64,000 bases of DNA from a virus (Duplodnaviria; Caudoviricetes), in IMG/VR virus record IMGVR_UViG_3300028591_000078, positions 160,001 through 224,000 of that record; one strand, written 5' to 3'. The number at the start of each line of letters is the position of its first letter. The stretch's first letter is position 1. The notes beneath the pieces are model-generated. The model saw only the letters and a list, made by a program, of their open reading frames with translations. It ran no database searches and was not told where the DNA came from. This document shows positions 32,960 through 50,531 of the stretch, piece after piece. Made by a program: the position numbers and the translations under genes.

Positions 32960-33065
32960 TTTATCAACTCCTTTCATGACCACTATTATAATATATAATT
33001 GAAATCTTCTAGAGTTGCAAAAGACGTCCATGGCTATATTAGCCATGGACAATATATTGTATGTC

Positions 33066-35273: not shown

Positions 35274-35297
35274 AAAGTAACCTCTAGGCATTATAGC

Positions 35298-35720
35298 CTA
35301 GAGGTTATTCTCTGTTTTGTCGTTATATTGTGCTAAGAAGTCCATCTCACTACTGTAGATAAGGCCTAAGAGATCACTCATATCTTTTTTAGAAAGCATT
35401 TTGATTCTCTTTATATCAAACTCTTTCACAGAACACATATTATTTAGCATAAGTATAACGAAATATAATTCAGCATTACCGTATATATCTACAGCAAGGA
35501 GTTTAGGCTTATACTTATACTTCCAGAACTCCTGATCATTAAGCACCACTGTAGTAGATTTGCCTAATAATTCAAATAGGTAATCACTGACTACATTATA
35601 TATCGGAATCTTTATATCACCAGTTTCATCCAGCATACTTAAATTAGCATAAGATATAGTAACAGCACTACCAGCTTCGATAAACTGTTCCAAAGTAGAA
35701 GTACTTTTAAGACTTGCCAT
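35298..35720 (-). CDS. baseplate wedge-like protein (T4 gp53/LysM-like)
   Basis: PKLLAVDIYGNAELYFVILMLN motif. Confidence 0.55.
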   Translation of the reverse strand: MASLKSTSTLEQFIEAGSAVTISYANLSMLDETGDIKIPIYNVVSDYLFELLGKSTTVVLNDQEFWKYKYKPKLLAVDIYGNAELYFVILMLNNMCSVKEFDIKRIKMLSKKDMSDLLGLIYSSEMDFLAQYNDKTENNL

Positions 35721-38610: not shown

Positions 38611-38640
38611 ATAGTCCTAGGGAATTATCCCTAGGACTAT
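38611..38640. terminator. hairpin terminator (CCTAGG family)
   Basis: atagtcctaggga-atta-tccctaggactat. Confidence 0.7.
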
Positions 38641-38670: not shown

Positions 38671-38756
38671 GACTGTGCTCGAAAATGAGCACAGTCTTTT
38701 AAATTATTTTCTACAACCTATATAACTTAAGTGTTTTACACTTAAGTTATATAGGT
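38671..38756 (+). promoter_or_regulatory. type-A cassette leader: 10-bp hairpin plus 19-bp palindrome with GTTTTAC centre
   Basis: gactgtgctc/gagcacagtc and acctatataacttaagtgt-ttt-acacttaagttatataggt. Confidence 0.75.
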
Positions 38757-38784
38757 GTAAAATTTTCGAAAGAAGGTTTGATAT

Positions 38785-39513
38785 ATGTCTTTATGGGTTA
38801 ATGAAAATGGAGTAATGAAAGAGATTACTGATGTAAATAAAAGCAATGCTATAAATATAGTAAAACTTGGAATAGATGATCTTGATGTAACTGCTGATCA
38901 GGTAAAAAACTATATTATAAATTGGACTGGTTGGAATAAGGCAGCTTTTAATGATGAATATAAAGGTGAATTACTAATTCCTATAAAAACGGTTAATATT
39001 GGATGTGCCCCTGAGCTTATAGGAATTAATTATACAAGAGAATATTTTTATCAAGATGATATAGATGATAGTAATGATTATTCAAGTTATGACCTTTTTA
39101 TATTATCTAATACAACAACTACGGTAACAAAAACAACTATAGAAAGAATCGGATATAGCTATGTAGAAAGAGGAGATTTTGGAATCTCTGTAGATCTTAA
39201 TATATTACGTCAAGGAAAGTATGCTAATCTTAAAGCAGAATATTCTTATAGCATGCCTTTTACAACAGAAACTAATCAGGTTTCTACAACACGCAATGGT
39301 CGAACTATTACATATAGACCGGTAATGACACCTATGAAGTGCGTTGTAATGCATTTATCTGGATCAAATCTTATATTCTATCAGTCAGCAAATATTTATT
39401 CATATGGCGGAGAACATGAAACTACTTCTGCACTTAGAAATAATCTTAGAGTTCAAGCTAGTTCGACTGGTGGTAAAGGTATAGCAATGTACACTATACC
39501 TATATTACATTAA
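38785..39513 (+). CDS. variable tip cassette protein 1 (putative receptor-binding adhesin)
   Basis: MSLWVNENG N-terminus; body related to 46283..46972. Confidence 0.7.
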   Translation: MSLWVNENGVMKEITDVNKSNAINIVKLGIDDLDVTADQVKNYIINWTGWNKAAFNDEYKGELLIPIKTVNIGCAPELIGINYTREYFYQDDIDDSNDYSSYDLFILSNTTTTVTKTTIERIGYSYVERGDFGISVDLNILRQGKYANLKAEYSYSMPFTTETNQVSTTRNGRTITYRPVMTPMKCVVMHLSGSNLIFYQSANIYSYGGEHETTSALRNNLRVQASSTGGKGIAMYTIPILH

Positions 39514-39602
39514 GTAAATATTTCCAATTAATCTATGTATAACTTTATAATACTCTTGTACATATAGTCTTAGATGACTATATGTATAGGAGGTTATTAT
39601 AT

Positions 39603-39875
39603 ATGTCTAATAATAAGCAACCATTTTTATTTGACATAGATTCTGGAAATATTGGGGTAGGAGAAGATACTCCAATTATACAATTTAAGCATCCACCAAA
39701 GATTGTAGTATTATATCTATATGATACAAGAAGTATTTATAATCCTATGAAAGTTATAACTCTTCATCAAGATACTTCTAAACACATCTTTGGTACTAAC
39801 TATGTAGAACTACAAGGAAAATATCTAATATTTAATATGAGTACCGATGGTTTCTCATGGCTAGCATTTTTCTAA
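39603..39875 (+). CDS. tip-like domain lacking the conserved N-terminal peptide
   Basis: PKIVVLY similar to PKFxxxFY/PKAFVVAY of cassettes; own plain late promoter at 39541-39552. Confidence 0.5.
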   Translation: MSNNKQPFLFDIDSGNIGVGEDTPIIQFKHPPKIVVLYLYDTRSIYNPMKVITLHQDTSKHIFGTNYVELQGKYLIFNMSTDGFSWLAFF

Positions 39876-39879
39876 AACT

Positions 39880-39909
39880 AATCCCTAGGGTATTAATACC
39901 CTAGGGATT
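39880..39909. terminator. perfect 30-bp palindrome / bidirectional terminator
   Basis: aatccctagggtatt-aataccctagggatt. Confidence 0.75.
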
Positions 39910-39916
39910 TATTGTT

Positions 39917-40345
39917 TTAATAGAAGATGATTAGTTCACCATCTTCATATTTATAACTACTGCTACCATACGTTGTAGAATCGGATCCATTTGAAATTTC
40001 AATAGATAATTTTTTAGTTGAATCATTATAGGAATATTTATAATGATATCGTCCAGTACTACCATTATTATTATTTATTCCTACAAAGCTACCACTAGAC
40101 CCTGAACTAGTATCTATGTTTAATCTGTCAACTCCATCACTATTAATACCAGAAGAACTTGGTTCTGTATATCTATAAAAACACATACAAAATTTTGGAG
40201 CGCTAGGAAGATCAACAGTTTTATTTAATGAACCAGTACTGGTTGATGCTTTAAAAGATTTTATTCCTGTTAATCCAGAACCAGCAGCAAGATATTCATC
40301 AGTTAAACTAGTTACAGTACCATCTTCATTAGCATATATTGCCAT
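39917..40345 (-). CDS. variable tip cassette protein 2
   Basis: MAIYANEDG; body related to 40930..41337. Confidence 0.7.
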   Translation of the reverse strand: MAIYANEDGTVTSLTDEYLAAGSGLTGIKSFKASTSTGSLNKTVDLPSAPKFCMCFYRYTEPSSSGINSDGVDRLNIDTSSGSSGSFVGINNNNGSTGRYHYKYSYNDSTKKLSIEISNGSDSTTYGSSSYKYEDGELIIFY

Positions 40346-40393
40346 AATAAGCCTCCTTATGAATGTAAATAAATTTTATTCCTATTTATTTTG

Positions 40394-40423
40394 CTAAACT
40401 TAAAAGTAAACTTTTAAGTTTAG
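40394..40423 (-). promoter_or_regulatory. type-B leader palindrome
   Basis: ctaaacttaaaagt-aa-acttttaagtttag; identical copies at 41386 and 47019, inverted copy at 48960. Confidence 0.8.
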
Positions 40424-40505
40424 TCGAAAATTAAAAATTACATACTCACATGCTGCCTAAGTATATGAGTGGTAAAAATTTTTGATCAAATTAATTTTTA
40501 AATGA

Positions 40506-40534
40506 CTAAACTTTCAGTTTTACTGAAAGTTTAG
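40506..40534 (+). promoter_or_regulatory. type-C leader palindrome
   Basis: ctaaactttcagt-ttt-actgaaagtttag. Confidence 0.75.
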
Positions 40535-40557
40535 GAAAGAAAGAGAAATGCATTTTT

Positions 40558-40890
40558 ATGGCTGTATATGCTAATGAAGATGGTACTATTAAAAATCTGA
40601 CTGATATAACTAATACTGGTTTTACAAAAATTACAATGGGAATTATAGGTTCTAAGGGTACTATATCAAAAAATGTTGGTTTTACTATAAAACATTGTTT
40701 ATTTATTGGAATTAGAGAAAGTGGCGGAGACAGTTATCCTGAAATACAGTCTAATACATTTGCGGTTGATAGTGGATCTATATATGTAGGAGGATATGAT
40801 TACGCAAATGTATCATTTTCTGGAACTACTATTTCCTATAGTAATAATGGTAGTAGCAACAGAAATGTTGTTTATATAGCATTTGGATAA
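40558..40890 (+). CDS. variable tip cassette protein 3
   Basis: MAVYANEDG; ends in YIAFG. Confidence 0.7.
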   Translation: MAVYANEDGTIKNLTDITNTGFTKITMGIIGSKGTISKNVGFTIKHCLFIGIRESGGDSYPEIQSNTFAVDSGSIYVGGYDYANVSFSGTTISYSNNGSSNRNVVYIAFG

Positions 40891-40895
40891 ATAAA

Positions 40896-40922
40896 ATCCC
40901 TAGGGTAAAATACCCTAGGGAT
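40896..40922. terminator. bidirectional terminator, near-identical to 39880
   Basis: atccctagggta-aaa-taccctagggat. Confidence 0.75.
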
Positions 40923-40929
40923 ATTTATT

Positions 40930-41337
40930 TTAATAAAAGACTATCATTAGACAATCCTCATATTTTCTATCTTCTGAAGTTTGATTGGTACCAGCGTGTC
41001 CATTATTTATACTAATTACTAGCTGTTTTGTTGATTCTATATAATTATAGGTATATAAATAACTGTTTGGTATACTTCCATTTGAATCAAATTTACCAAC
41101 CCAATGGCCACTTAGATTAACAGAATATCCTAGATATGAGTGATATTCAAGGCCACCAGCAGTACCACTTATAAGTTTATTATATGTATAAAAACATAAA
41201 ACAAATTTTGGCTTGCTATCAAGCGTTATAGTAGTCGATTTAGTAAAAGCTTTTATTCCTGTTAGCCCAGAATCAACAGCAAGATATTCACCAGTTAAAT
41301 CAGATATAGTACCATCTTCATTAGCGTATATAGCCAT
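40930..41337 (-). CDS. variable tip cassette protein 4
   Basis: MAIYANEDG. Confidence 0.7.
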   Translation of the reverse strand: MAIYANEDGTISDLTGEYLAVDSGLTGIKAFTKSTTITLDSKPKFVLCFYTYNKLISGTAGGLEYHSYLGYSVNLSGHWVGKFDSNGSIPNSYLYTYNYIESTKQLVISINNGHAGTNQTSEDRKYEDCLMIVFY

Positions 41338-41385
41338 AGTAAACCTCCTTATGAATGTATTTTATTTTTATTCCTATTTATTTTG

Positions 41386-41415
41386 CTAAACTTAAAAGTA
41401 AACTTTTAAGTTTAG
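41386..41415 (-). promoter_or_regulatory. type-B leader palindrome
   Basis: Identical to 40394-40423. Confidence 0.8.
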
Positions 41416-41522
41416 TTGCTTGTAAAATTTTACATATGGCCATACTGCCTAAGTATAAGAATGATTAAAATTCTATATTTGATTAAATAATAAAGCCGTA
41501 GGGAAATTCCCTACGGCTAATT

Positions 41523-42107
41523 TTATTCATCATCGTATACACTAGAAAGTTCTTTTCCAATATCTGTAACTCCAGCTTCATCATTAGATATCTGCTCTGT
41601 TGCTTCCTCATCTTCATTAAATGATTTTGCTGCCCATTCAGATATACCAATATCTTTAGTATCTTGGACGAATTCATCTTTACGAGTATATACTTTTATA
41701 GCATCAAGTACATATTGATCGAGCTTCATAGCATCTATGAGTTTTAATATATTAGGACTCAATCCATACTCTGACCCACATTCAAATAAACGCTCTTTAG
41801 CAACTCCAAGTATTGCCAGATAATACTCATCTTCAGTATTGAAATCACGTCTATTTAAAGATGCTATCTTGATTGCATCCTGTGCTACCTGATCAATCTG
41901 TTCGAGAATAAGTGTAAGATAGTCATCTACATCCATAGTGACTTCAGATTTTGCAGACTTCTTTCTACGAATCTCTAAGATCAACATAGCAAGATTTACC
42001 ATTACAAGTACTACTACTGCTACTATAAGTAAAACACTAGTAGCCTCATTCTCAGGTGTCATTACCTCGGGATGAGATTCTGCACTAAGTAAAATAGTAT
42101 TCATCAT
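41523..42107 (-). CDS. single-TM membrane protein
   Basis: Hydrophobic helix followed by RRKK; acidic C-terminus. Confidence 0.6.
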   Translation of the reverse strand: MMNTILLSAESHPEVMTPENEATSVLLIVAVVVLVMVNLAMLILEIRRKKSAKSEVTMDVDDYLTLILEQIDQVAQDAIKIASLNRRDFNTEDEYYLAILGVAKERLFECGSEYGLSPNILKLIDAMKLDQYVLDAIKVYTRKDEFVQDTKDIGISEWAAKSFNEDEEATEQISNDEAGVTDIGKELSSVYDDE

Positions 42108-42124
42108 CTTAAACCCTCCTCTTA

Positions 42125-43777
42125 TTAGCATACATAGTTATTATTCGTATTATTATTAGCAACAATTCCAGACAGTCCTTTACCTCTTAAGAGGTTATTG
42201 CTGAAAATGTTGTTCTGGCCATTTACATATATTGTATACTCATCATCTTTGTAGTCTTTAGGATCACCATTTCCACGGACTATAGTATTATATGCAAAAA
42301 TATTGTATTTCGGTACTACATCTGTAGAACCCTGAGCAGCATTCAGCAGAGCGATACCAATCTTGCAATTAATAAGATGATTATTCTCTATCTTATTATA
42401 CTGAGTATTAGAGTAGAAAGATGCTACATAGATACCAAGATTACAATCTATGGCTTTAGAGAATACTATAGAGTTTGTATAGCAAGGAGTATTGACATCA
42501 GATATTATCCAGAAGCCATACTTACAATTCTTAGCAGTACAGTTCTCTATAATATTATTATCTCCAGTAATCTTGATACCATGTCTACACTCTACAGTAA
42601 CATTCTCGATTCTATTATTGTTACCATGTACACATATATTACCCCAAGGACGTTCAATAGGACCAATAAGTCCCATAGAAGATATACTGAGATTTCTAAG
42701 AGTTATTCCAGAACCCTTGATATCAAATACATACTGCTCAGTCTTCTTATCAAACATATCCATATGTATAGAGTTGGTAATCTTAACACCAGATTCACCT
42801 ACTATTTCAACATCGTTTCTATTGATAATAATAGGCTTTCTGGTAGTATATGAATTATATGCTTTAAGAAGAACTATCTTTCTAGCATTCACATTATTGA
42901 GCAGCTTGGCAAATACTTCATGAAGAGAATCATCCTGTCCAACAACGAAGTCTGCACCTGTATATTCAGGACCTATAGTATATACCTTAGGTTCGAGTCT
43001 TACTATCGGAACTTTAGTATCTCTATATACTAACTGATTACCCTCAAACTGAATAGCTTCGAGTTTCATCAGCATTTCAGGAGACATAAGTCCAGACTTA
43101 TAATAGGTTACAAGGTTATTATCAGCCTTACTATCCCAAGATGAAATCTGCTCATCAGATACATGACGGATATTCTCATTAGAAGGATGGATATAATTAT
43201 TAGCATTATAGTCTATAGACTTAAGCTTATCATAGTCCTTTGCTGTAATAAGACCATCGATCTCACTAGTAGCAAGAGGATAAGTGAACATCTTTAAAGC
43301 TACCCACTTACCAGCAGTGTAACGATATCCTATGCCTTCATCATTTACTGGCACAAACCAGCCCTCTTCTATATTACTAAGACCAGAATACTTCTGTTTA
43401 AATTCTTCAGTATTCTTTACTGCTGGCTGCCATTTCATACCCATAGTAGCAGCTGCAATTTTATTATCAGTTTCACTACGAGTATACTTATCAAAGATCT
43501 TAGATCTTTCTTCTTTAGTAATATGAATAATAGCGTTATTAGTATGGGATCTAAGCTCAGATCTTACAAGGTCTGCTTTAGCCTTAGAGCCCTTAACAGA
43601 CTCTTTATTATTCCATTCATCAGTCTTCTCTTTAGTAAGATGAATATTCTGATTAGTTATATGAGCGAGCATTCTCTCATATATTATAGGATCAACAGAG
43701 ACATTCTCCTGAGTAATATTAGTAGTAGTTTCTTCTGCCTTAGAAGAATTGTCTGATATAATTCCAATCGGTTTCAA
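42125..43777 (-). CDS. tail spike with pectin-lyase-like beta-helix (putative depolymerase)
   Basis: N-terminal HITxEE..W/GLMS fibre motifs; C-terminal GxNNxIEN beta-helix repeats. Confidence 0.7.
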   Translation of the reverse strand: MKPIGIISDNSSKAEETTTNITQENVSVDPIIYERMLAHITNQNIHLTKEKTDEWNNKESVKGSKAKADLVRSELRSHTNNAIIHITKEERSKIFDKYTRSETDNKIAAATMGMKWQPAVKNTEEFKQKYSGLSNIEEGWFVPVNDEGIGYRYTAGKWVALKMFTYPLATSEIDGLITAKDYDKLKSIDYNANNYIHPSNENIRHVSDEQISSWDSKADNNLVTYYKSGLMSPEMLMKLEAIQFEGNQLVYRDTKVPIVRLEPKVYTIGPEYTGADFVVGQDDSLHEVFAKLLNNVNARKIVLLKAYNSYTTRKPIIINRNDVEIVGESGVKITNSIHMDMFDKKTEQYVFDIKGSGITLRNLSISSMGLIGPIERPWGNICVHGNNNRIENVTVECRHGIKITGDNNIIENCTAKNCKYGFWIISDVNTPCYTNSIVFSKAIDCNLGIYVASFYSNTQYNKIENNHLINCKIGIALLNAAQGSTDVVPKYNIFAYNTIVRGNGDPKDYKDDEYTIYVNGQNNIFSNNLLRGKGLSGIVANNNTNNNYVC

Positions 43778-43836
43778 TTGAAGTCCTCCCTTCAAAATTT
43801 GGTGGTCGGGATAGATATCTATCCCGACCGATTTAT

Positions 43837-45054
43837 TTAAAGATCTTCAGGATGGATCTCAGCATCATAAGAGTATCCATGAGGATGCATTGCAGTTGTA
43901 GGAACATGACGCATTGCAGGTCTAAGATCATGATGGTCAAGATCCCATCTGTCCTTAGATATCTGGTAATATCTCATACACTTAAGAGATTCCAAGCAAG
44001 GATCAGGTACAGTAAACAGCGATGCAGATGTACCAGCTTCAAGCTTGATATATTCTATAGTAGCATCTGCTTCAGAAGAAGCCATAAGTCCTACATAGTA
44101 ATTATCTACAGGCTCAGCGATATTGAATGTATACATATTCAGACCACTAGCACCACAGAGCTTAGTACCATTGGTAGCAGTAAGCAGATAGATATTAGCA
44201 CTACCAGTAAGCTTAGCAGAAAGTGTATAGTTTCCAGCAGGAAGATGCTCTATGTACTGTACTATATTACCACCAGTAGCAAATCTTACTCTGATAGGAT
44301 TGGACAGATAGAGTCCAGTATCATCAGCAAATATCTTACAACCATTAGTATACCATCTATCAACAGTATAACCAGTGATATCATAAGATACTTCTTCTCT
44401 CTGATTTATATAGAAAGAAGGATTGATAAGTATATTAGGTTTAGATGTAGACTGATCATAGGTAGCAGAACCACCTTCAGATTCTGTATTACATCTTACA
44501 AGTTCGAGTGCAGGATCAGGATCTACATACATAGTACCATTTTCACCATGCTCGATCTTTACATACTGAAGAATTATATCTTCACCAGAGTACACTCTGA
44601 TAACGAACTCATTGGTTACAGTATTATATACTATTCTAGGACCAATCTGAGTTACCTGTTCCTGATAGAAATAGCTATTATTGGTAGCATCTCTAATAAA
44701 TGCATCCCATGTAGCTTCATATCCAACAGTCTTACAAGAGATAGAAAAGAGACTTCCTACCTCTATATTTCTAGTAAGCTTCTGAGATATATTAATATAA
44801 GCATCAGAAGTACCACTTACTCTTACTCTGAGACCCTGTTCTACAGGATTTATCTCAAAAGATACATCAGGAGACTGAGAGCTTGTAACAGTCCAGTTAT
44901 TTACACATGATTTATTGAATTCTGTATAAGAATCTTTACCCGAAGTATTGATCTTAAAGTTTGAATTGATCAAAAGATTGGGGTTGCATATAGTATTAGG
45001 CGAGACGATTCTGGCATTTCCAGCAATCATGTTGCTTCCAATTGCAAGAGACAT
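43837..45054 (-). CDS. tail protein with two carbohydrate-binding-like modules
   Basis: Duplicated PNLLINxxFxIN..YxKxExG..PDP..E..C module typical of phage tail fibre CBM domains. Confidence 0.65.
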   Translation of the reverse strand: MSLAIGSNMIAGNARIVSPNTICNPNLLINSNFKINTSGKDSYTEFNKSCVNNWTVTSSQSPDVSFEINPVEQGLRVRVSGTSDAYINISQKLTRNIEVGSLFSISCKTVGYEATWDAFIRDATNNSYFYQEQVTQIGPRIVYNTVTNEFVIRVYSGEDIILQYVKIEHGENGTMYVDPDPALELVRCNTESEGGSATYDQSTSKPNILINPSFYINQREEVSYDITGYTVDRWYTNGCKIFADDTGLYLSNPIRVRFATGGNIVQYIEHLPAGNYTLSAKLTGSANIYLLTATNGTKLCGASGLNMYTFNIAEPVDNYYVGLMASSEADATIEYIKLEAGTSASLFTVPDPCLESLKCMRYYQISKDRWDLDHHDLRPAMRHVPTTAMHPHGYSYDAEIHPEDL

Positions 45055-45141
45055 ATAGGATTTCCTCCTTTTGAATTGATATTTAATATAAAGTTAAGAG
45101 AAGCAATATTAAACCCTACCCATATGGGTAGGGTTAATGTA

Positions 45142-46176
45142 TTAGGTATGAGTTCCATACAGGTATCCAGCAGGACAAGTTGTAGTATCTGCAGCTCTAG
45201 TACCAAATCCTATATTTCTTAAACAGCTAAGATAATAGTAGCTATCACCAGTAGAAGTCTTATGATTCTCAGTTGTTTCAGCAAGACTACTTGCATAGTT
45301 TGCATTTATTGCATTTAATGCAGAGCCACCAGCAGAATCTGATCCGGCATAATTATGTGTATGGGACTTAGGAGCATAAGCAGTGTCATGGTTATGAGTA
45401 GCAATAGCAAAGTATGAATCAGGTCTATATGCCGCGCTATCTATAGCATGAACCTTTATATTCTGAACAGAACCATTTATAGTAAACTGTATATTACCAT
45501 TTATAGAGCTTTCAGCAGCACTTGTAACACCAGTATTAGTGATTGTAGATCCAGTTACATTTATACCAGTACCACCAGTATATGCAGTACCAGCAGGCAG
45601 AGGTGCAGTTGCAGTATGATCATCACCATATGTATATACAATATTACCGTTTTCGACATTGATAGACTTTACATATGTACCCTTGATATTATTACCGCTC
45701 TGATCAGCAATAGCCTTATCAGCAGTACCATGAATATTACCAGTAAATCCATACTGCGATCCAATGCTACCATCATCACATACATAGAGATGTCCTATAA
45801 CAGCGCCATCGTGAAAGTATATATGCTTAGCGATATGAGTTTCACCCTGATCATTTATAAGGGCAATACCAGTTTCACCAGTATCAGAGATCTTATATCC
45901 ATTGATTGAATCTGCATTCAGATCAGGCATAGAATCTACAGTAGTTTTCAACCATTCTTTATCTACAGATATAGTACCAGTAGATGCGATATAGATTATA
46001 CCTTCACCGGCCTTAATAGATGATCCACTACCAGGATCTACATAGTCATCATATATATAATATACTGTCTTGGTGTTATGATTAATCTCACCAGTACTAA
46101 TCTTCAAAAGCCATTCGGATTTCTTTATTGGAACAGGCTCATTATTACGATTTTTAAGTCCGTTTATTACAGGCAT
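45142..46176 (-). CDS. short tail fibre protein
   Basis: Shares HNHDxAYAPKSHTHNYAGSxSAGG and the C-terminal LRxxxxGTxAAxTTxCPxGxxYGxH motif with the giant fibre. Confidence 0.7.
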   Translation of the reverse strand: MPVINGLKNRNNEPVPIKKSEWLLKISTGEINHNTKTVYYIYDDYVDPGSGSSIKAGEGIIYIASTGTISVDKEWLKTTVDSMPDLNADSINGYKISDTGETGIALINDQGETHIAKHIYFHDGAVIGHLYVCDDGSIGSQYGFTGNIHGTADKAIADQSGNNIKGTYVKSINVENGNIVYTYGDDHTATAPLPAGTAYTGGTGINVTGSTITNTGVTSAAESSINGNIQFTINGSVQNIKVHAIDSAAYRPDSYFAIATHNHDTAYAPKSHTHNYAGSDSAGGSALNAINANYASSLAETTENHKTSTGDSYYYLSCLRNIGFGTRAADTTTCPAGYLYGTHT

Positions 46177-46250
46177 TGAATACTCCTCCTTTTATAAAGT
46201 GTATTTTAATATAAAGTTAATACTCTCCAAATAGCTAGTGATAGAAGAAT

Positions 46251-46278
46251 TACCCATGTACCAATTGGTACATGGGTA
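46251..46278. terminator. perfect 28-bp palindrome / terminator
   Basis: tacccatgtaccaa-ttggtacatgggta. Confidence 0.7.
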
Positions 46279-46282
46279 TATA

Positions 46283-46972
46283 TTAATCATCAAAAGTAAG
46301 AATATTGAATACTCTAACTTTATCATTACCTGGATATACAGATATATTTGATTTGGCTTGAGATTTTGTAACACTACTATTTAACTGAAAAGCTTGTGAT
46401 ATAATAAAATTATTACCACTAAGAGTATATAGCATTACATTACTGTCAACTCCTCTAAATCCTGGTTTATATGGATATATAATGTATTGTGATTGCCCAG
46501 AACCTATTTGAATCGGAGCTCCACTTAATTCGAGCATAGCCCACGAATAACCAGTATTATTGGAATAATAACTTTGACCTTGTTTTAACTTATACCATGA
46601 CTGGGAACTAATAAGTTCATTTTGAAAACTATAAATAGTATTAGTACTTGTGGCTGTCAAACTTGTATATACTTCATCTGTATAAGTAGTTGCATCAGCA
46701 TCTGGATCATCACTTCGAAAATTTAAAGCAATATAAGAAGGTGTACATCCAAGATCTATAGTCTTTATTGGAATTACAAAATTTTCCATATTTGCATATG
46801 TTGATGTAGGAGTTTTAGTTCCCCATCTAGGATAATTATTAATTATAGTGCTTCTAAATTCAGCAGGACTCATATCACAAGTATCGCTAGTAATTTTAAA
46901 AGTTTGAAAGAACTTGGCACTTGCTTTACTAAGATCTTTAATACTACCATTCTCATTAACATATACTGCCAT
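46283..46972 (-). CDS. variable tip cassette protein 5
   Basis: True start MAVYVNENG after GAGGTG. Confidence 0.7.
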   Translation of the reverse strand: MAVYVNENGSIKDLSKASAKFFQTFKITSDTCDMSPAEFRSTIINNYPRWGTKTPTSTYANMENFVIPIKTIDLGCTPSYIALNFRSDDPDADATTYTDEVYTSLTATSTNTIYSFQNELISSQSWYKLKQGQSYYSNNTGYSWAMLELSGAPIQIGSGQSQYIIYPYKPGFRGVDSNVMLYTLSGNNFIISQAFQLNSSVTKSQAKSNISVYPGNDKVRVFNILTFDD

Positions 46973-47018
46973 ACTAAGGCACCTCACGTTCATTAAATTT
47001 TTATTCCTATTTATTTTG

Positions 47019-47048
47019 CTAAACTTAAAAGTAAACTTTTAAGTTTAG
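47019..47048 (-). promoter_or_regulatory. type-B leader palindrome
   Basis: Identical to 40394-40423. Confidence 0.8.
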
Positions 47049-47091
47049 TCGAAAATTAAAAATTACATACGGCCATAGCGAGGCAATATAT

Positions 47092-47220
47092 GATCATACC
47101 CATTTTAGGGTATGATCTTTGAAATATTTTTCTATAACCTATATAACTTATTGGTTTTACCAATAAGTTATATAGGTTTAAATCGTGTAAAACACTTAAG
47201 TTATATAGGTGTAAAATTTT
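47092..47220 (+). promoter_or_regulatory. type-A leader (covariant hairpins plus extra flipped half-palindrome)
   Basis: gatcataccc/gggtatgatc; aacctatataacttattggt-ttt-accaataagttatataggtt; gtgtaaaacacttaagttatataggt. Confidence 0.75.
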
Positions 47221-47237
47221 GAAGGAAGGTTTGATAT

Positions 47238-47990
47238 ATGTCTTTATGGGTTAATGAAAATGGTACTATGAAAGAAATTGCTACAGATAAGGATAGTACT
47301 GGTGCATATAAATGTACTAGAGATCTTGTATACTGTAAATGGTCATATAACAATGTAGCACGAGAAGGATATCAAGGATATCAGGGTATTACTGCTGCTA
47401 CATTAGGATTAACAAAAACTATATTAGTTGATAAAAAGACTGGTTCTGGTCAGAGTGGATCTTATTCATATCCATCTCGTGATATAAGTATAAAAGATCT
47501 TGATGAAAGTTATAAAAAGACTATTTATACTGGAACATTTCCTCGTAATATGTGTCCAAATGCAGCAATGGTATCACAAATCAGAACTGATACACTAATC
47601 AGTTCTGATACTGGTTTGGTTTTAAAACAATATTTTATTAGTAATACTGCTGAATTTGATAAGTTTTTAGAAGTTGGTGATTCTTTTAGTAGTATTGTTG
47701 GATGCGGATACCCAATTGCAGATGATTATAGTAATAATGCCTCTAAATCTAGTGACCCTAGAAATTGGTCGTCAAAAGTTGAACTGAGAGCTATGGGAGA
47801 ATGCTTAGATGGTATTAATTATAGATTCTATGTAGTACTAGCTAGAACTTCTGACATTACAGAACAGGCAGCTTTAACTACAAAACTGTATTCTTATCAT
47901 AGATTAAATTCTCCAGGATTTGATTATAAATGGATTGGTACTTATTTAATTCAACATATACCATCATACACTGAATATACTATAGAATAA
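47238..47990 (+). CDS. variable tip cassette protein 6
   Basis: MSLWVNENG; body unrelated to cassette 1. Confidence 0.7.
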   Translation: MSLWVNENGTMKEIATDKDSTGAYKCTRDLVYCKWSYNNVAREGYQGYQGITAATLGLTKTILVDKKTGSGQSGSYSYPSRDISIKDLDESYKKTIYTGTFPRNMCPNAAMVSQIRTDTLISSDTGLVLKQYFISNTAEFDKFLEVGDSFSSIVGCGYPIADDYSNNASKSSDPRNWSSKVELRAMGECLDGINYRFYVVLARTSDITEQAALTTKLYSYHRLNSPGFDYKWIGTYLIQHIPSYTEYTIE

Positions 47991-47996
47991 TATAAA

Positions 47997-48021
47997 ACCC
48001 GTGTACCATTGGTACACGGGT
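47997..48021. terminator. terminator, covariant copy of 46251 palindrome
   Basis: acccgtgtacca-t-tggtacacgggt. Confidence 0.7.
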
Positions 48022-48053
48022 ATATTATTTTATTGAAAGCTCATTACGTTACC

Positions 48054-48371
48054 TTAATTGTATGCCTTTGTCTGTAAGTATATGATCTCATAGCCATATT
48101 CTTTTGCACAGATGTGTTCTATATTACATCCACGTGCAGTATTATATCCATCTACAAATGCAACGACATCTGCATTAGACATAAGCTTGAGACTGTCTGC
48201 AAGATACCATAATGGCTTAGCATCTACAGGAGCATCCTTGAAGAAACTATCGATGATTTCTATCTCTTCTTCTCTATATCTTTCCTTTATTTCCTTGATT
48301 GCCTCTTCTCGTGTAGCAAGAATCTGCTCATCTGAGAGACTTCTCATCGGCTGAGAGATAAATACCTTCAT
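48054..48371 (-). CDS. DUF4406-like (nucleoside deoxyribosyltransferase-fold) protein
   Basis: MKVFISQPM..ADVVAF..ARGCNIEH motif. Confidence 0.7.
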   Translation of the reverse strand: MKVFISQPMRSLSDEQILATREEAIKEIKERYREEEIEIIDSFFKDAPVDAKPLWYLADSLKLMSNADVVAFVDGYNTARGCNIEHICAKEYGYEIIYLQTKAYN

Positions 48372-48425
48372 AACTATATCATCCTTTCTTTTGAATATAT
48401 TATATAGTTATTGAGGATTTGCCTT

Positions 48426-48830
48426 TTAATACACTACAAATACACCATACTTTATTGAACTGTCACTTTTTACAATTAGTGTTGTTGCATTATTTGTATC
48501 TTTTGCTAAGTTAATATATGCTCCACCTCTACCAGCATTAACACTATAGTTCCAACCTATATTTCTACTAGTAATTTCCTCACCATTATAAGTAGTAAAT
48601 ACCATATCTTCAACTTTTATTATTACTGGAACTCTTACTGTAGTTTCTGTCTCCACATGGAGAGGTATAAGTACTATATATTTATAATTAGTATAATTAG
48701 GTATACTAACAGAATCATCCGTTGTTCTAGTACCAAAATATTTGATACCATTTATTACAAATCCATTACTATAATCTGTTTTTTCAGTTAAGTTTTTTAA
48801 AGTTCCATTTTCATTTGCATAAATAGCCAT
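48426..48830 (-). CDS. variable tip cassette protein 7
   Basis: MAIYANENG; DYxxGFVINGIKY subfamily. Confidence 0.7.
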   Translation of the reverse strand: MAIYANENGTLKNLTEKTDYSNGFVINGIKYFGTRTTDDSVSIPNYTNYKYIVLIPLHVETETTVRVPVIIKVEDMVFTTYNGEEITSRNIGWNYSVNAGRGGAYINLAKDTNNATTLIVKSDSSIKYGVFVVY

Positions 48831-48845
48831 AAAATCAAAATCCTC

Positions 48846-48877
48846 CTAAACTTTTCAAGTAAACTTGAAAAGTTTAG
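48846..48877 (-). promoter_or_regulatory. type-C leader palindrome
   Basis: ctaaacttttcaagt-aa-acttgaaaagtttag. Confidence 0.75.
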
Positions 48878-48959
48878 TCATTTAAAAATTAATTTGATCA
48901 AAAATTTTGGCTATTCATATACGGCCACAATGTGGTCGTATGTAATTTTTAATTTTTGA

Positions 48960-48989
48960 CTAAACTTAAAAGTTTACTTTTAAGTTTAG
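48960..48989 (+). promoter_or_regulatory. type-B leader palindrome (inverted copy)
   Basis: ctaaacttaaaagt-tt-acttttaagtttag. Confidence 0.8.
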
Positions 48990-49037
48990 CAAAATAAATA
49001 GGAATAAAAATTATTTACGATCATAAGGAGGCTTACT

Positions 49038-49493
49038 ATGGCCGTATATGTTAATGAGAATGGTACAGTGCAAACGTTAGCTACAGATGGCGAACCATTA
49101 AACATGTCAGTTCAACATTATACAGCAAAATTTATTTATGCATATGCTCAGAGTAATCCATGGCGTGGATCTGGCTTTGAAGACCAAAGTTTTACTTTAC
49201 CATTTACTCCAAAAGCTTTTGTTGTAGCTTATGATAATGCAAAAATGCCAGTAGAACACGCTGACAGTACAAACAGTCATCGTATTATAACATCAAGAGA
49301 TATTGCAATAGGTGATAACTCAATAGATATAACTGCCTCTTTTACCACTAACCATAAAAGCGTTTATTATCATTATTTTAAAATTAATGGTAATACAGTC
49401 ACTATACCAAAGACTACATATACTAGTTTTGCTCTTCCTTCGGTAGCATCTCACACTTTCATAATAAATTTTGATGTAATCTTTTTCTATTAA
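49038..49493 (+). CDS. variable tip cassette protein 8
   Basis: MAVYVNENG. Confidence 0.7.
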   Translation: MAVYVNENGTVQTLATDGEPLNMSVQHYTAKFIYAYAQSNPWRGSGFEDQSFTLPFTPKAFVVAYDNAKMPVEHADSTNSHRIITSRDIAIGDNSIDITASFTTNHKSVYYHYFKINGNTVTIPKTTYTSFALPSVASHTFIINFDVIFFY

Positions 49494-49531
49494 ACAAAAT
49501 TTACCCACAGGGAAAACCCTGTGGGTATTTA

Positions 49532-49966
49532 TTATGTAAGTCCGAATACAAGATACTTAGGATAATAGTTTGCACCATTGTCATGAAACTTAATATTTAA
49601 TCCAGTAGAATTTATTAGAGTTGCTTTTATTATTAATCCACCTCTACCAGCAGAACCACTATAGGCCCATCCAACAGATCTAGTAGTTGCTCCATTAAGG
49701 CCTCCAGAAGTTTGAAAAGTTAAAGGTGTTTCTAATATAAACATTCCACAAGAAAGTCGCATGCTTGCGGTAGGATCATCAGGCTGTATAGGAAGTCCTA
49801 TGATATATTTATATCCTGTATAATTAGCAATATCAATTCCGACTTCAGTACTAGCATGCTCTACAGTACCAAGATACTTGATACCATTGATTACAAAACC
49901 ATCACCATAGTCAGTCTTGTTGGTCAGTTCTTTCATTACACTGTTTTCATTAGCATAAATCGCCAT
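49532..49966 (-). CDS. variable tip cassette protein 9
   Basis: True start MAIYANENS; body related to 48426..48830. Confidence 0.7.
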   Translation of the reverse strand: MAIYANENSVMKELTNKTDYGDGFVINGIKYLGTVEHASTEVGIDIANYTGYKYIIGLPIQPDDPTASMRLSCGMFILETPLTFQTSGGLNGATTRSVGWAYSGSAGRGGLIIKATLINSTGLNIKFHDNGANYYPKYLVFGLT

Positions 49967-49991
49967 AACTCTTAAATCTCCCATATATAAA

Positions 49992-50074
49992 ATTTTCAGT
50001 TTTATGGCTTAAGAATTATTACTAAGAACTTCTTAGTAATAATTCTTAAGGTGAATTATGATAAAACTGAAAAT
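49992..50074. promoter_or_regulatory. type-D shared leader: 21-1-21 palindrome inside 14-bp outer inverted repeat
   Basis: cttaagaattattactaagaa-c-ttcttagtaataattcttaag (50008-50050); attttcagttttat/ataaaactgaaaat. Confidence 0.75.
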
Positions 50075-50096: not shown

Positions 50097-50531
50097 ATGG
50101 CAGTATATGCAAATGAAAATGGCAATATTAAGGAATTAACTAGTAAGGTAGACCTTGGTAATGGCTTTGTTATAAACGGTATAGAATACTTAGGAGAATA
50201 TCTTCCTTCTCAAAGAGATGGAACTTTTACTTTACCAAAACCATATACAAGCTATAAGTATTTAGTTGTGTATGATTTCTATGGTAAGAAAAATAATGGA
50301 GAAGCTAGCTGGACTAATGTAAAACAGCATTCATGCCTAGAATTTATAGATACATCACTGATTAATCCAAGTGATAGATACACATATGATGGATATATGG
50401 TTGGAGGGGATGATCCAACTACAAGTAACAAATTATGCTGTATTATTGAATTTGGTAATACTACGACATTAAGTATAGACTGTGGAAATTATTATAGTTA
50501 TAATAGTATAAAATTTTTCGGTATATACTAA
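50097..50531 (+). CDS. variable tip cassette protein 10
   Basis: MAVYANENG; GFVINGIEY subfamily. Confidence 0.7.
   Translation: MAVYANENGNIKELTSKVDLGNGFVINGIEYLGEYLPSQRDGTFTLPKPYTSYKYLVVYDFYGKKNNGEASWTNVKQHSCLEFIDTSLINPSDRYTYDGYMVGGDDPTTSNKLCCIIEFGNTTTLSIDCGNYYSYNSIKFFGIY

Follow-up and report, generated by a model that had tools for sequence, protein, structure and literature searches.

Perfect palindromes with putative overlapping late promoters in a rumen phage: candidate direction-switching elements probably flipped by replication

Introduction

Phase-variation promoters such as fimS (turned by FimB/FimE), hin (turned by Hin) and the invertons of Bacteroides are segments of roughly 150-1000 bp that are inverted by a dedicated recombinase. 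In Mu (Gin), P1 (Cin) and p15B (Min), a serine invertase swaps C-terminal coding segments in frame. To our knowledge, heritable inversion of a promoter is thought to require both a recombinase and an invertible segment of at least 100 bp. Here we describe nine perfect palindromes that accompany a family of ten genes, termed cassette genes, in a 64,000-nt stretch of the genome of an uncultured giant rumen phage (the window; bases 160001-224000 of the virus record IMGVR_UViG_3300028591_000078, which has 238,365 bp, 34.7% G+C and a completeness of 97%). From the sequence we propose, as a reading whose chances we judge to be evenly balanced, that the palindromes are direction-switching promoters that are flipped by replication.

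Two sets of described elements serve as background. The late promoter of Bacillus phage AR9, AACA-N6-T-A/G, is read by the non-virion RNA polymerase (RNAP) with gp226 (PMC5312081, PMC5449584), and the final A/G of the motif is the mapped transcription start (PMC5312081). Substitutions at positions -11 to -8 abolish transcription and substitutions at +1 strongly reduce it; the enzyme recognizes the template strand and works also on single-stranded DNA (PMC5449584). Seven antisense late promoters are known in AR9. In addition, inter-strand template switching at perfect hairpins inverts their loops (PMC8794818), and 'flip-flop' hairpin inversions of plastomes are cited in PMC12928735.

Results

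One-sided late-promoter matches in the palindromes

A genome-wide scan for perfect hairpins with arms of at least 11 nt returned 72, most of which are G+C-rich terminators. Nine are AT-rich palindromes (20-28% G+C) with arms of 13-21 nt and centres of 1-3 nt, all of them with AACTT. These nine (P1 to P9, types A to D) all lie within 38716-50050, and no other palindrome of the 238-kb genome has an AACTT arm. They pair one-to-one with the ten cassette genes, the single type D palindrome being common to a divergent pair.

The phage encodes beta- and beta'-like RNAP genes or domains in split pieces, and its genome has two promoter classes, an early AT-rich box and a late motif of the AR9 type that precedes late and structural genes genome-wide. 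The late motif AACA-N6-TA has 60 matches in 24.4 kb of intergenic DNA versus 20 with N5 and 19 with N7, and 42 of the 60 point at a gene at most 150 nt away. A matrix was trained on 54 late-promoter sites outside the palindrome region (training median 12.9 bits), for which the extended consensus is AAC[A/T]T-www-A-[AGT]-T-A(+1)-A. The distance from TA to ATG at late promoters has a median of 28 nt, and AACT, with T at -8, is used in 18 of the 54 independent promoters.

Scored with this matrix, the strand that reads away from the adjacent gene reaches 14.3 bits in the four type A copies, 10.8 in B1 and 11.4 in B2, against 0.4-3.3 bits on the gene-ward strand of the A and B palindromes. For type D the scores are 14.4 bits toward the gene at 50097 and 7.6 toward that at 49966. 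Scores of 10.8-14.4 bits are reached at only 4e-5 to 1.5e-4 of genome positions. AACT is present at -11 to -8 in all nine palindromes, and the six-base spacer followed by T(-1) and a purine at +1 is found on one strand of A (all four), B1, B2 and D, the spacing being N5 in C1 and N7 in C2. A sequence-only reading of the window had stated that arm plus loop spell the late motif away from the gene, that the gene-ward reading is defective, that type C copies are spaced N5/N7 and that the central base of D makes it one-sided; all of this was borne out. The palindrome sites are most likely AR9-type late promoters, and we infer that the polymerase would start at them.

In types A, B and C, positions -11 to -1 lie in the arm and +1/+2 is the loop, resulting in two convergent promoters with common start bases, of which loop AA completes one and loop TT the opposite one. 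In type D, two back-to-back promoters overlap at -11 to -7 and have position -9 in common (AACTT versus AAGTT); a C centre completes AACTTCTTAGTA toward 50097 and a G centre completes the same sequence toward 49966. This overlap is unlike the ordinary divergent gene pairs of the phage, which have two complete promoters 8-11 nt apart (78936/78956, 150391/150414 and 230650/230671). Both geometries, with the centre at +1 or at -9, place the asymmetry on a critical promoter base. Each palindrome may therefore be described as a putative pair of overlapping AR9-type late promoters, convergent in A, B and C and divergent in D, that would be read by the phage's own multisubunit RNAP. The only asymmetric bases (AA versus TT, or C versus G) would belong to both promoters of a pair, so that just one would be complete at a time. 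The bases that flip are exactly those, -9 and +1, at which substitutions in AR9 abolish or strongly reduce promoter activity, respectively (PMC5449584).

Arrangement of the nine palindromes

P1 (type B1, 38716..38756) has arms of 19 nt and loop TTT on the + strand, lies 28 nt upstream of the 242-aa gene and carries the promoter reading AACTTAAGTGTA on the - strand. The 83 nt preceding the ATG are identical across three lineages. P2 (type A, 40394..40423; arms 14, loop AA on the + strand) presents the promoter AACTTAAAAGTA on the + strand, pointing from the 142-aa gene toward the 110-aa gene. P3 (type C1, 40506..40534; arms 13, loop TTT on the + strand) lies 23 nt upstream of the 110-aa gene. 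P4 (type A, 41386..41415) has lost its partner cassette, and its away reading ends in the terminator at 41494-41518. P5 (type A, 47019..47048) lies 46 nt from the ATG of the 229-aa gene and is followed by P6 (type B2, 47136..47178; arms 20, loop TTT). P7 (type C2, 48846..48877; arms 15) overlaps by 3 nt with the Shine-Dalgarno sequence of the 134-aa gene. P8 (type A, 48960..48989; loop TT on the + strand) has its promoter on the - strand toward the 134-aa gene and, when flipped, toward the 151-aa gene. P9 is the type D palindrome (50008..50050; arms 21, centre base 50029).

All eight A, B and C loops are T-only in the gene-sense orientation, four on each genome strand; the T-loop bias thus follows the gene and not the replication strand. 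In the window state only D faces its own gene (59 nt), and the A and B palindromes point away. Leaders of the A and B genes would be 31-81 nt if their palindromes were flipped.

The palindromes do not resemble intrinsic terminators, given their low G+C content and lack of a T tail, and were not called by the terminator scan; in Rfam they gave only sub-threshold matches to generic hairpins. Sigma-70-like sites are not enriched in the region; a lone match, TTTACA-17-TAAAAT, lies inside P1, and types A, C and D are without it. The early promoter ..TTCAATTATATATTATAATAGTGA was not found in the palindrome and cassette region.

Elsewhere in the genome this early box has about 12 near-identical copies with a conserved upstream part AAAACTAAAAGATT, among them those at genome positions 9728, 46008, 66842, 76649, 112645, 133659, 157119, 192996 (window 32996) and 233017. 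Shorter TATACTATAAT-type variants lie upstream of several other genes.

Between P6 and the 250-aa gene, a relic B1 half-site (47186-47215) forms a 4-bp stem GTGT/ACAC with loop AAA; the intact B1 copy has the reverse, TTT, at 38734-38738. The half-site resembles an old flip that may have been frozen when the distal arm was lost.

Flipped centres in natural populations

Many rumen-metagenome contigs carry the cassette family. The contigs of one sister clade (L109 clade) are 95-96% identical to the window and nearly identical to one another, and L114 represents a third lineage of roughly 91-96% identity. The palindrome arms are intact in all contigs, even in the L114 lineage, whose flanks differ. 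A pattern search for AACTT-N4-GTTTAC-N4-AAGTT in IMG/VR gave 108 single matches and no multi-copy locus, which we regard as chance; the exact type A palindrome had no match in IMG/VR and the JGI metagenomes. Known occurrences of the element are limited to this phage species, in rumen assemblies of ENA and Logan.

Both orientations of the centre were found in these populations at four sites (D, P8, P2 and P3). The sequence-only reading had named a lack of such polymorphism in reads or related genomes as a refutation, and the related genomes speak in its favour. The D centre is C in the window, L109, L111, L114, L127 and L128, and G in L110, L120, L121, L126, L152 and L156 (6:6). The P8 loop, before the 151-aa gene, is TT in six contigs and AA in L111 and L127 (two of eight flipped). 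The P2 loop, before the 126/142-aa gene, is TT in ten contigs and AA in L131 (one of eleven flipped), and the P3 loop is TTT in the window and AAA in 10/10 sister-clade contigs, being fixed differently in the two clades. The centres of P1, P4, P5, P6 and P7 are invariant in every contig, with the T-loop in 7/7 contigs at P1 and 11/11 at P7.

These flips stand against a background of otherwise 0-3 single-nucleotide polymorphisms (SNPs) per 5 kb among the compared contigs. Comparison of L109, L110 and L111 over 3.3 kb gave four real differences, two of which are palindrome centres. Ten contigs aligned over 3.4 kb show four variable columns, among them the D centre (4:6), which together with the only other shared SNP violates the four-gamete test. 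The MEGAHIT contig L109 (k127) and the Logan contig L120, both from run ERR2027900, differ in 5,251 nt solely at the D centre. Similarly, the whole P2-P3 intergenic spacer of L131 is identical to that of L109 apart from the P2 loop. The centres flip without exchange of flanks, and in several samples the assembled majority is the flipped allele. As far as sequence goes, the clean case is D: it is symmetric, stands at 6:6, and either state would complete one promoter.

A 19.5-kb Logan contig of SRR8436538 (the window's lineage; gene at 77-511) has its first base inside the single-copy D palindrome, 76 nt ahead of the 50097-type gene. Such a contig start would be expected of a mixed C/G centre in a k=31 graph.

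Loop inversion at other hairpins and the likely mechanism

No match to a serine or tyrosine recombinase (PF00239 Resolvase, PF00589 Phage_integrase) was found in the 97%-complete 238-kb genome, and recombinase-driven flipping was rejected on this ground. Each centre change is an exact reverse complement of equal length with the stem untouched, as expected of loop inversion by template switching. The same change is found at unrelated hairpins of the genome: five G+C-rich terminator hairpins (33026-33050, 35278-35307, 38611-38640, 41494-41518 and 47997-48021) have loops or centre bases that are exactly reverse-complemented in sister lineages (L114 or the L109 clade), with unchanged stems. Replication template switching is the likely mechanism, as no recombinase gene is present. 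In the proposed sequence of events, a template switch between the strands inside the perfect arms during replication would cause the flip, each flip would reverse the promoter, and the progeny would inherit the state.

Within the near-identical clade, three of nine promoter palindromes are polymorphic versus none of about 17 terminator hairpins, which suggests that flipping is faster in the long AT-rich palindromes. By a crude count, at least four flip events at nine centres stand against about 8 SNPs in about 10 kb. The central 1-3 bases would thus be exchanged for their reverse complement much faster than point mutations arise, and the per-palindrome flip rate may be several hundred times the single-base rate, an estimate drawn from small numbers.

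Whole cassettes are rearranged as well. In L122, the 250-aa gene and the B2 palindrome face the A palindrome of the 151-aa gene (L122:430-800), corresponding to a 1.9-kb inversion between inverted A modules that crossed over within the 147-nt A repeat. L114 is without the 110-, 135-, 229-, 250- and 151-aa cassettes, and its block of the 134-aa and 105-aa genes is inverted (L114:16520-17500). Homologous recombination between the inverted A modules of about 130 nt would explain these rearrangements without a special enzyme.

Insulating hairpins and the predicted effect of a flip

A and B palindromes have terminator-like hairpins immediately on their distal side. The hairpin at 38671..38696 (+), just distal of P1, is predicted to insulate the 242-aa gene from upstream transcription; that at 47092..47117 (+), with a T-rich tail, lies between P5 and P6 and faces the 250-aa gene; and that at 48917..48943 (+), just distal of P8, faces the 151-aa gene. 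The position upstream of P1 that is homologous to 47092-47117 holds a hairpin with a different stem sequence, and the stem at 48917-48943 shows compensatory changes between lineages. None of the three is a terminator in the opposite direction. Because of these hairpins the adjacent A or B gene is not expected to be fed from upstream, and the palindrome appears to be its only visible promoter.

Transcription from an A palindrome set to the away state would find the way open, across the C palindrome, as far as the C-type gene. In each pair, the hairpins between the palindromes are predicted to let just one of the two away-transcripts pass. A flip of an insulated A or B palindrome would then toggle transcription: one state would serve the adjacent gene, the other the partner gene beyond the spacer or a short RNA with a dead end. 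P8 would choose between the 134-aa and 151-aa genes, P2 between the 110-aa and 142-aa genes, P6 between the 229-aa and 250-aa genes and D between the two divergent 144-aa genes, and the singletons P1 and P4 would choose between their own gene and a dead-end RNA of about 120 nt. With the centres as they stand in the window, four cassettes are predicted to be on and six off.

The sequence-only reading had offered two outcomes. That face-to-face promoters produce mutually antisense leaders is partly compatible with this layout, but the hairpins would pass just one away-transcript per pair. That loop inversion toggles the cassettes is partly supported by the natural flips at critical promoter bases, which may reflect a selected switch or ordinary hairpin loop inversion, a change that also affects terminators.

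The cassette genes

The ten paralogous genes have an N-terminus of the form MAxYANENG or MSLWVNENG and are found nowhere else in the genome; their proteins have about 15 N-terminal residues in common and little else. They encode, in order, 242 aa (38785..39513, +; MSLWVNENG...), 142 aa (39917..40345, -; MAIYANEDG...), 110 aa (40558..40890, +), 135 aa (40930..41337, -), 229 aa (46283..46972, -), 250 aa (47238..47990, +), 134 aa (48426..48830, -), 151 aa (49038..49493, +), 144 aa (49532..49966, -; MAIYANENS...) and 144 aa (50097..50531, +). No family was found for the ten proteins in Pfam and PHROGs. A megablast of the region against the phage collection gave no match, no protein relatives were found in IMG/VR, and a search of 5.8 billion proteins returned the same species cluster only.

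The array lies among tail-fibre-like genes, of which one encodes a 405-aa protein matching a tail-fibre PHROG and another a 556-aa beta-helix-like protein. The 50097 protein, modelled as a beta-sandwich, showed in a structure search a weak likeness to phi812 baseplate proteins and to receptor-binding domains of phage K gp144 (E about 0.02-0.05). The cassette genes may encode alternative tail-tip or receptor-binding proteins. All ten open reading frames are intact. Their ratio of nonsynonymous to synonymous substitution rates (dN/dS) is 0.2-0.8 in most comparisons (0.31-0.55 for the 242-aa gene) and above 1 in two low-divergence pairs, and that of neighbouring structural genes is 0.08-0.23. The pattern of the cassettes fits fast-evolving or intermittently used genes.

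Two genes of the window have very different alleles in the sister clade, namely 39917-40345 versus L109:2690-3070 (142 versus 126 aa, dS 0.9) and 40930-41337 versus L109:3654-4082 (135 versus 142 aa, dS 0.6). Both allele pairs sit behind identical palindromes and leaders, which suggests that cassettes may be replaced downstream of a conserved control module. Within the array also lies a 105-aa nucleoside 2-deoxyribosyltransferase-like gene (48054-48371, -; phrog_355, E 1.5e-16) with a canonical late promoter, which travels with the 134-aa cassette in the inverted block.

Discussion

Weighing the alternatives

Several observations weigh against a switch. Loop inversion is a general mutation mode in this phage and not special to the palindromes, and the N6 spacing of the late motif fails in C1 and C2, which are off-consensus. 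The away (T-loop) state of all eight A, B and C palindromes is strongly conserved, and between the window and L109 only one of nine sites differs in centre state. As fast neutral flipping would make about half of the sites differ between lineages, the T-loop state seems to be selected at most sites, and the flipped alleles could be mildly deleterious variants. The D polymorphism is a single C/G transversion, and two old alleles shuffled by recombination could explain it. Finally, several of the contigs are possibly re-assemblies of the same herd samples.

These points lead to an alternative in which the T-loop is the sole functional state, the away promoter feeds the partner gene or yields an antisense or short RNA, and the flips are neutral or slightly harmful mutational noise. 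The palindromes would then have no switch role and would serve C-type genes as a 5' RNA hairpin. We consider this less likely than a switch, although several points favour it: the five terminator loops flip too, loop inversion at perfect hairpins is a described type of mutation (PMC8794818, and chloroplast hairpins cited in PMC12928735), the T-loop is kept in every contig at five of the eight A, B and C sites, and the A away-transcript has its open path to the C genes. It does less well with P1 and P4, whose away state reads into terminators and serves no gene, yet is retained, and with D, which at 6:6 cannot have a 'wrong' state. Nor does it sit easily with the excess of polymorphic promoter palindromes over terminators in the near-identical clade (3/9 versus 0/~17) or with flipped alleles as the assembled majority in several samples. 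The 'mostly off' condition could be the resting state that selection maintains in a switch; alternatively, the T-loop is what functions and flips are errors that the phage tolerates.

Operators classically show perfect dyad symmetry, and these elements occur with a single gene family only, so that the palindromes might bind a dimeric regulator of the cassette genes, with an incidental likeness to promoters. This we find improbable, as the only bases common to types A, B, C and D are AACTT/AAGTT, the -11 element, and the spacing between the two copies ranges from 1 to 15 nt among types, too variable for a single dimer; an incidental likeness would also have to yield the one-strand scores that are so rare in the genome.

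Still less probable is a set of crossover sites for a site-specific invertase, comparable to hix, gix, cix or the shufflon sfx, with AA/TT as the overlap dinucleotide and whole cassettes being shuffled. A and C2 do resemble two half-sites flanking a 2-bp asymmetric core, and cassette blocks are rearranged between strains, as at the L122 junction in the 147-nt A module and in the inverted L114 block [134,105]. Against it stand the absence of Resolvase and Phage_integrase domains from the 97%-complete genome, the centres of 1, 2 or 3 nt and differing arm lengths, which no single recombinase site fits, the flips without flank exchange, and the account of the rearrangements by homologous recombination given above. 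That the flipped centres are assembly artefacts is least credible of all: many contigs do end at or inside palindromes and graphs with k of at most 22 cannot orient the D centre, but the final k was from 31 (Logan) up to 127-141, at which k-mers of centre plus flank distinguish the alleles and have to be present in the reads, identical alleles recur across samples and assemblers, and the P3 AAA is fixed in 10 contigs.

Returning to direction-switching promoters flipped by replication, a further step would be that the phage has evolved recombinase-free phase variation. Flips at roughly 1e-5 per generation would let sub-lineages express different cassettes of the ten-gene library as a bet-hedging of host range, with one base pair as the smallest invertible element. 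We offer this tentatively, as a possibility with the greater weight on the other side.

Comparison with known systems

The late promoters of this phage are similar to those of AR9 in the -11 AAC element, the N6 spacing, the TA start and the split beta/beta' RNAP genes. Unlike AR9, position -8 may be T here, and nine of the sites are embedded in perfect palindromes as overlapping promoters with one complete, for which nothing similar is reported in AR9. By sequence, the palindromes have the motif of the AR9 type in full, and its spacing and placement in part. Promoters of this kind, which depend on the template strand and the start site, may be unusually easy to make direction-switchable.

Similar to fimS, hin and the Bacteroides invertons, the locus has inverted repeats and two orientations in the population, and orientation would set the gene that is read. 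However, only 1-3 nt are inverted here, a recombinase gene is absent and most of the promoter lies in the arms; two defining features of an inverton, the recombinase and a segment of hundreds of base pairs able to synapse, are thus absent. If the proposal is true, this would explain why such tiny switches escape inverton finders. As in the inversion systems of Mu, P1 and p15B, alternative tail or receptor genes would be varied by DNA inversion beside tail-fibre genes, whereas here the cassettes are complete genes with their own starts and the promoter turns instead.

Template-switch loop inversions (PMC8794818; chloroplast 'flip-flop' cases cited in PMC12928735) are alike in the exact reverse-complement loop, the unchanged stem and the recurrence. 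The known cases are treated as neutral or structural, whereas the bases concerned here are the start site or -9, and no link of hairpin loop inversion to promoter direction was found in the literature searched. The terminal palindromes of parvoviruses also take two reverse-complement centre forms, flip and flop, through replication and at about equal frequency; those are genome ends made by hairpin transfer, whereas the palindromes described here are internal and carry a promoter.

The locus suggests that a perfect palindrome can reverse a promoter by inverting 1-3 bases through ordinary replication errors, and wild populations show both states, at up to 50:50. Should transcription follow the logic of the sequence, phage host-recognition genes would have a new and very cheap means of phase variation. 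Beside the recombinase-driven systems, the locus looks like a very small, enzyme-free switch that selects which genes are read.

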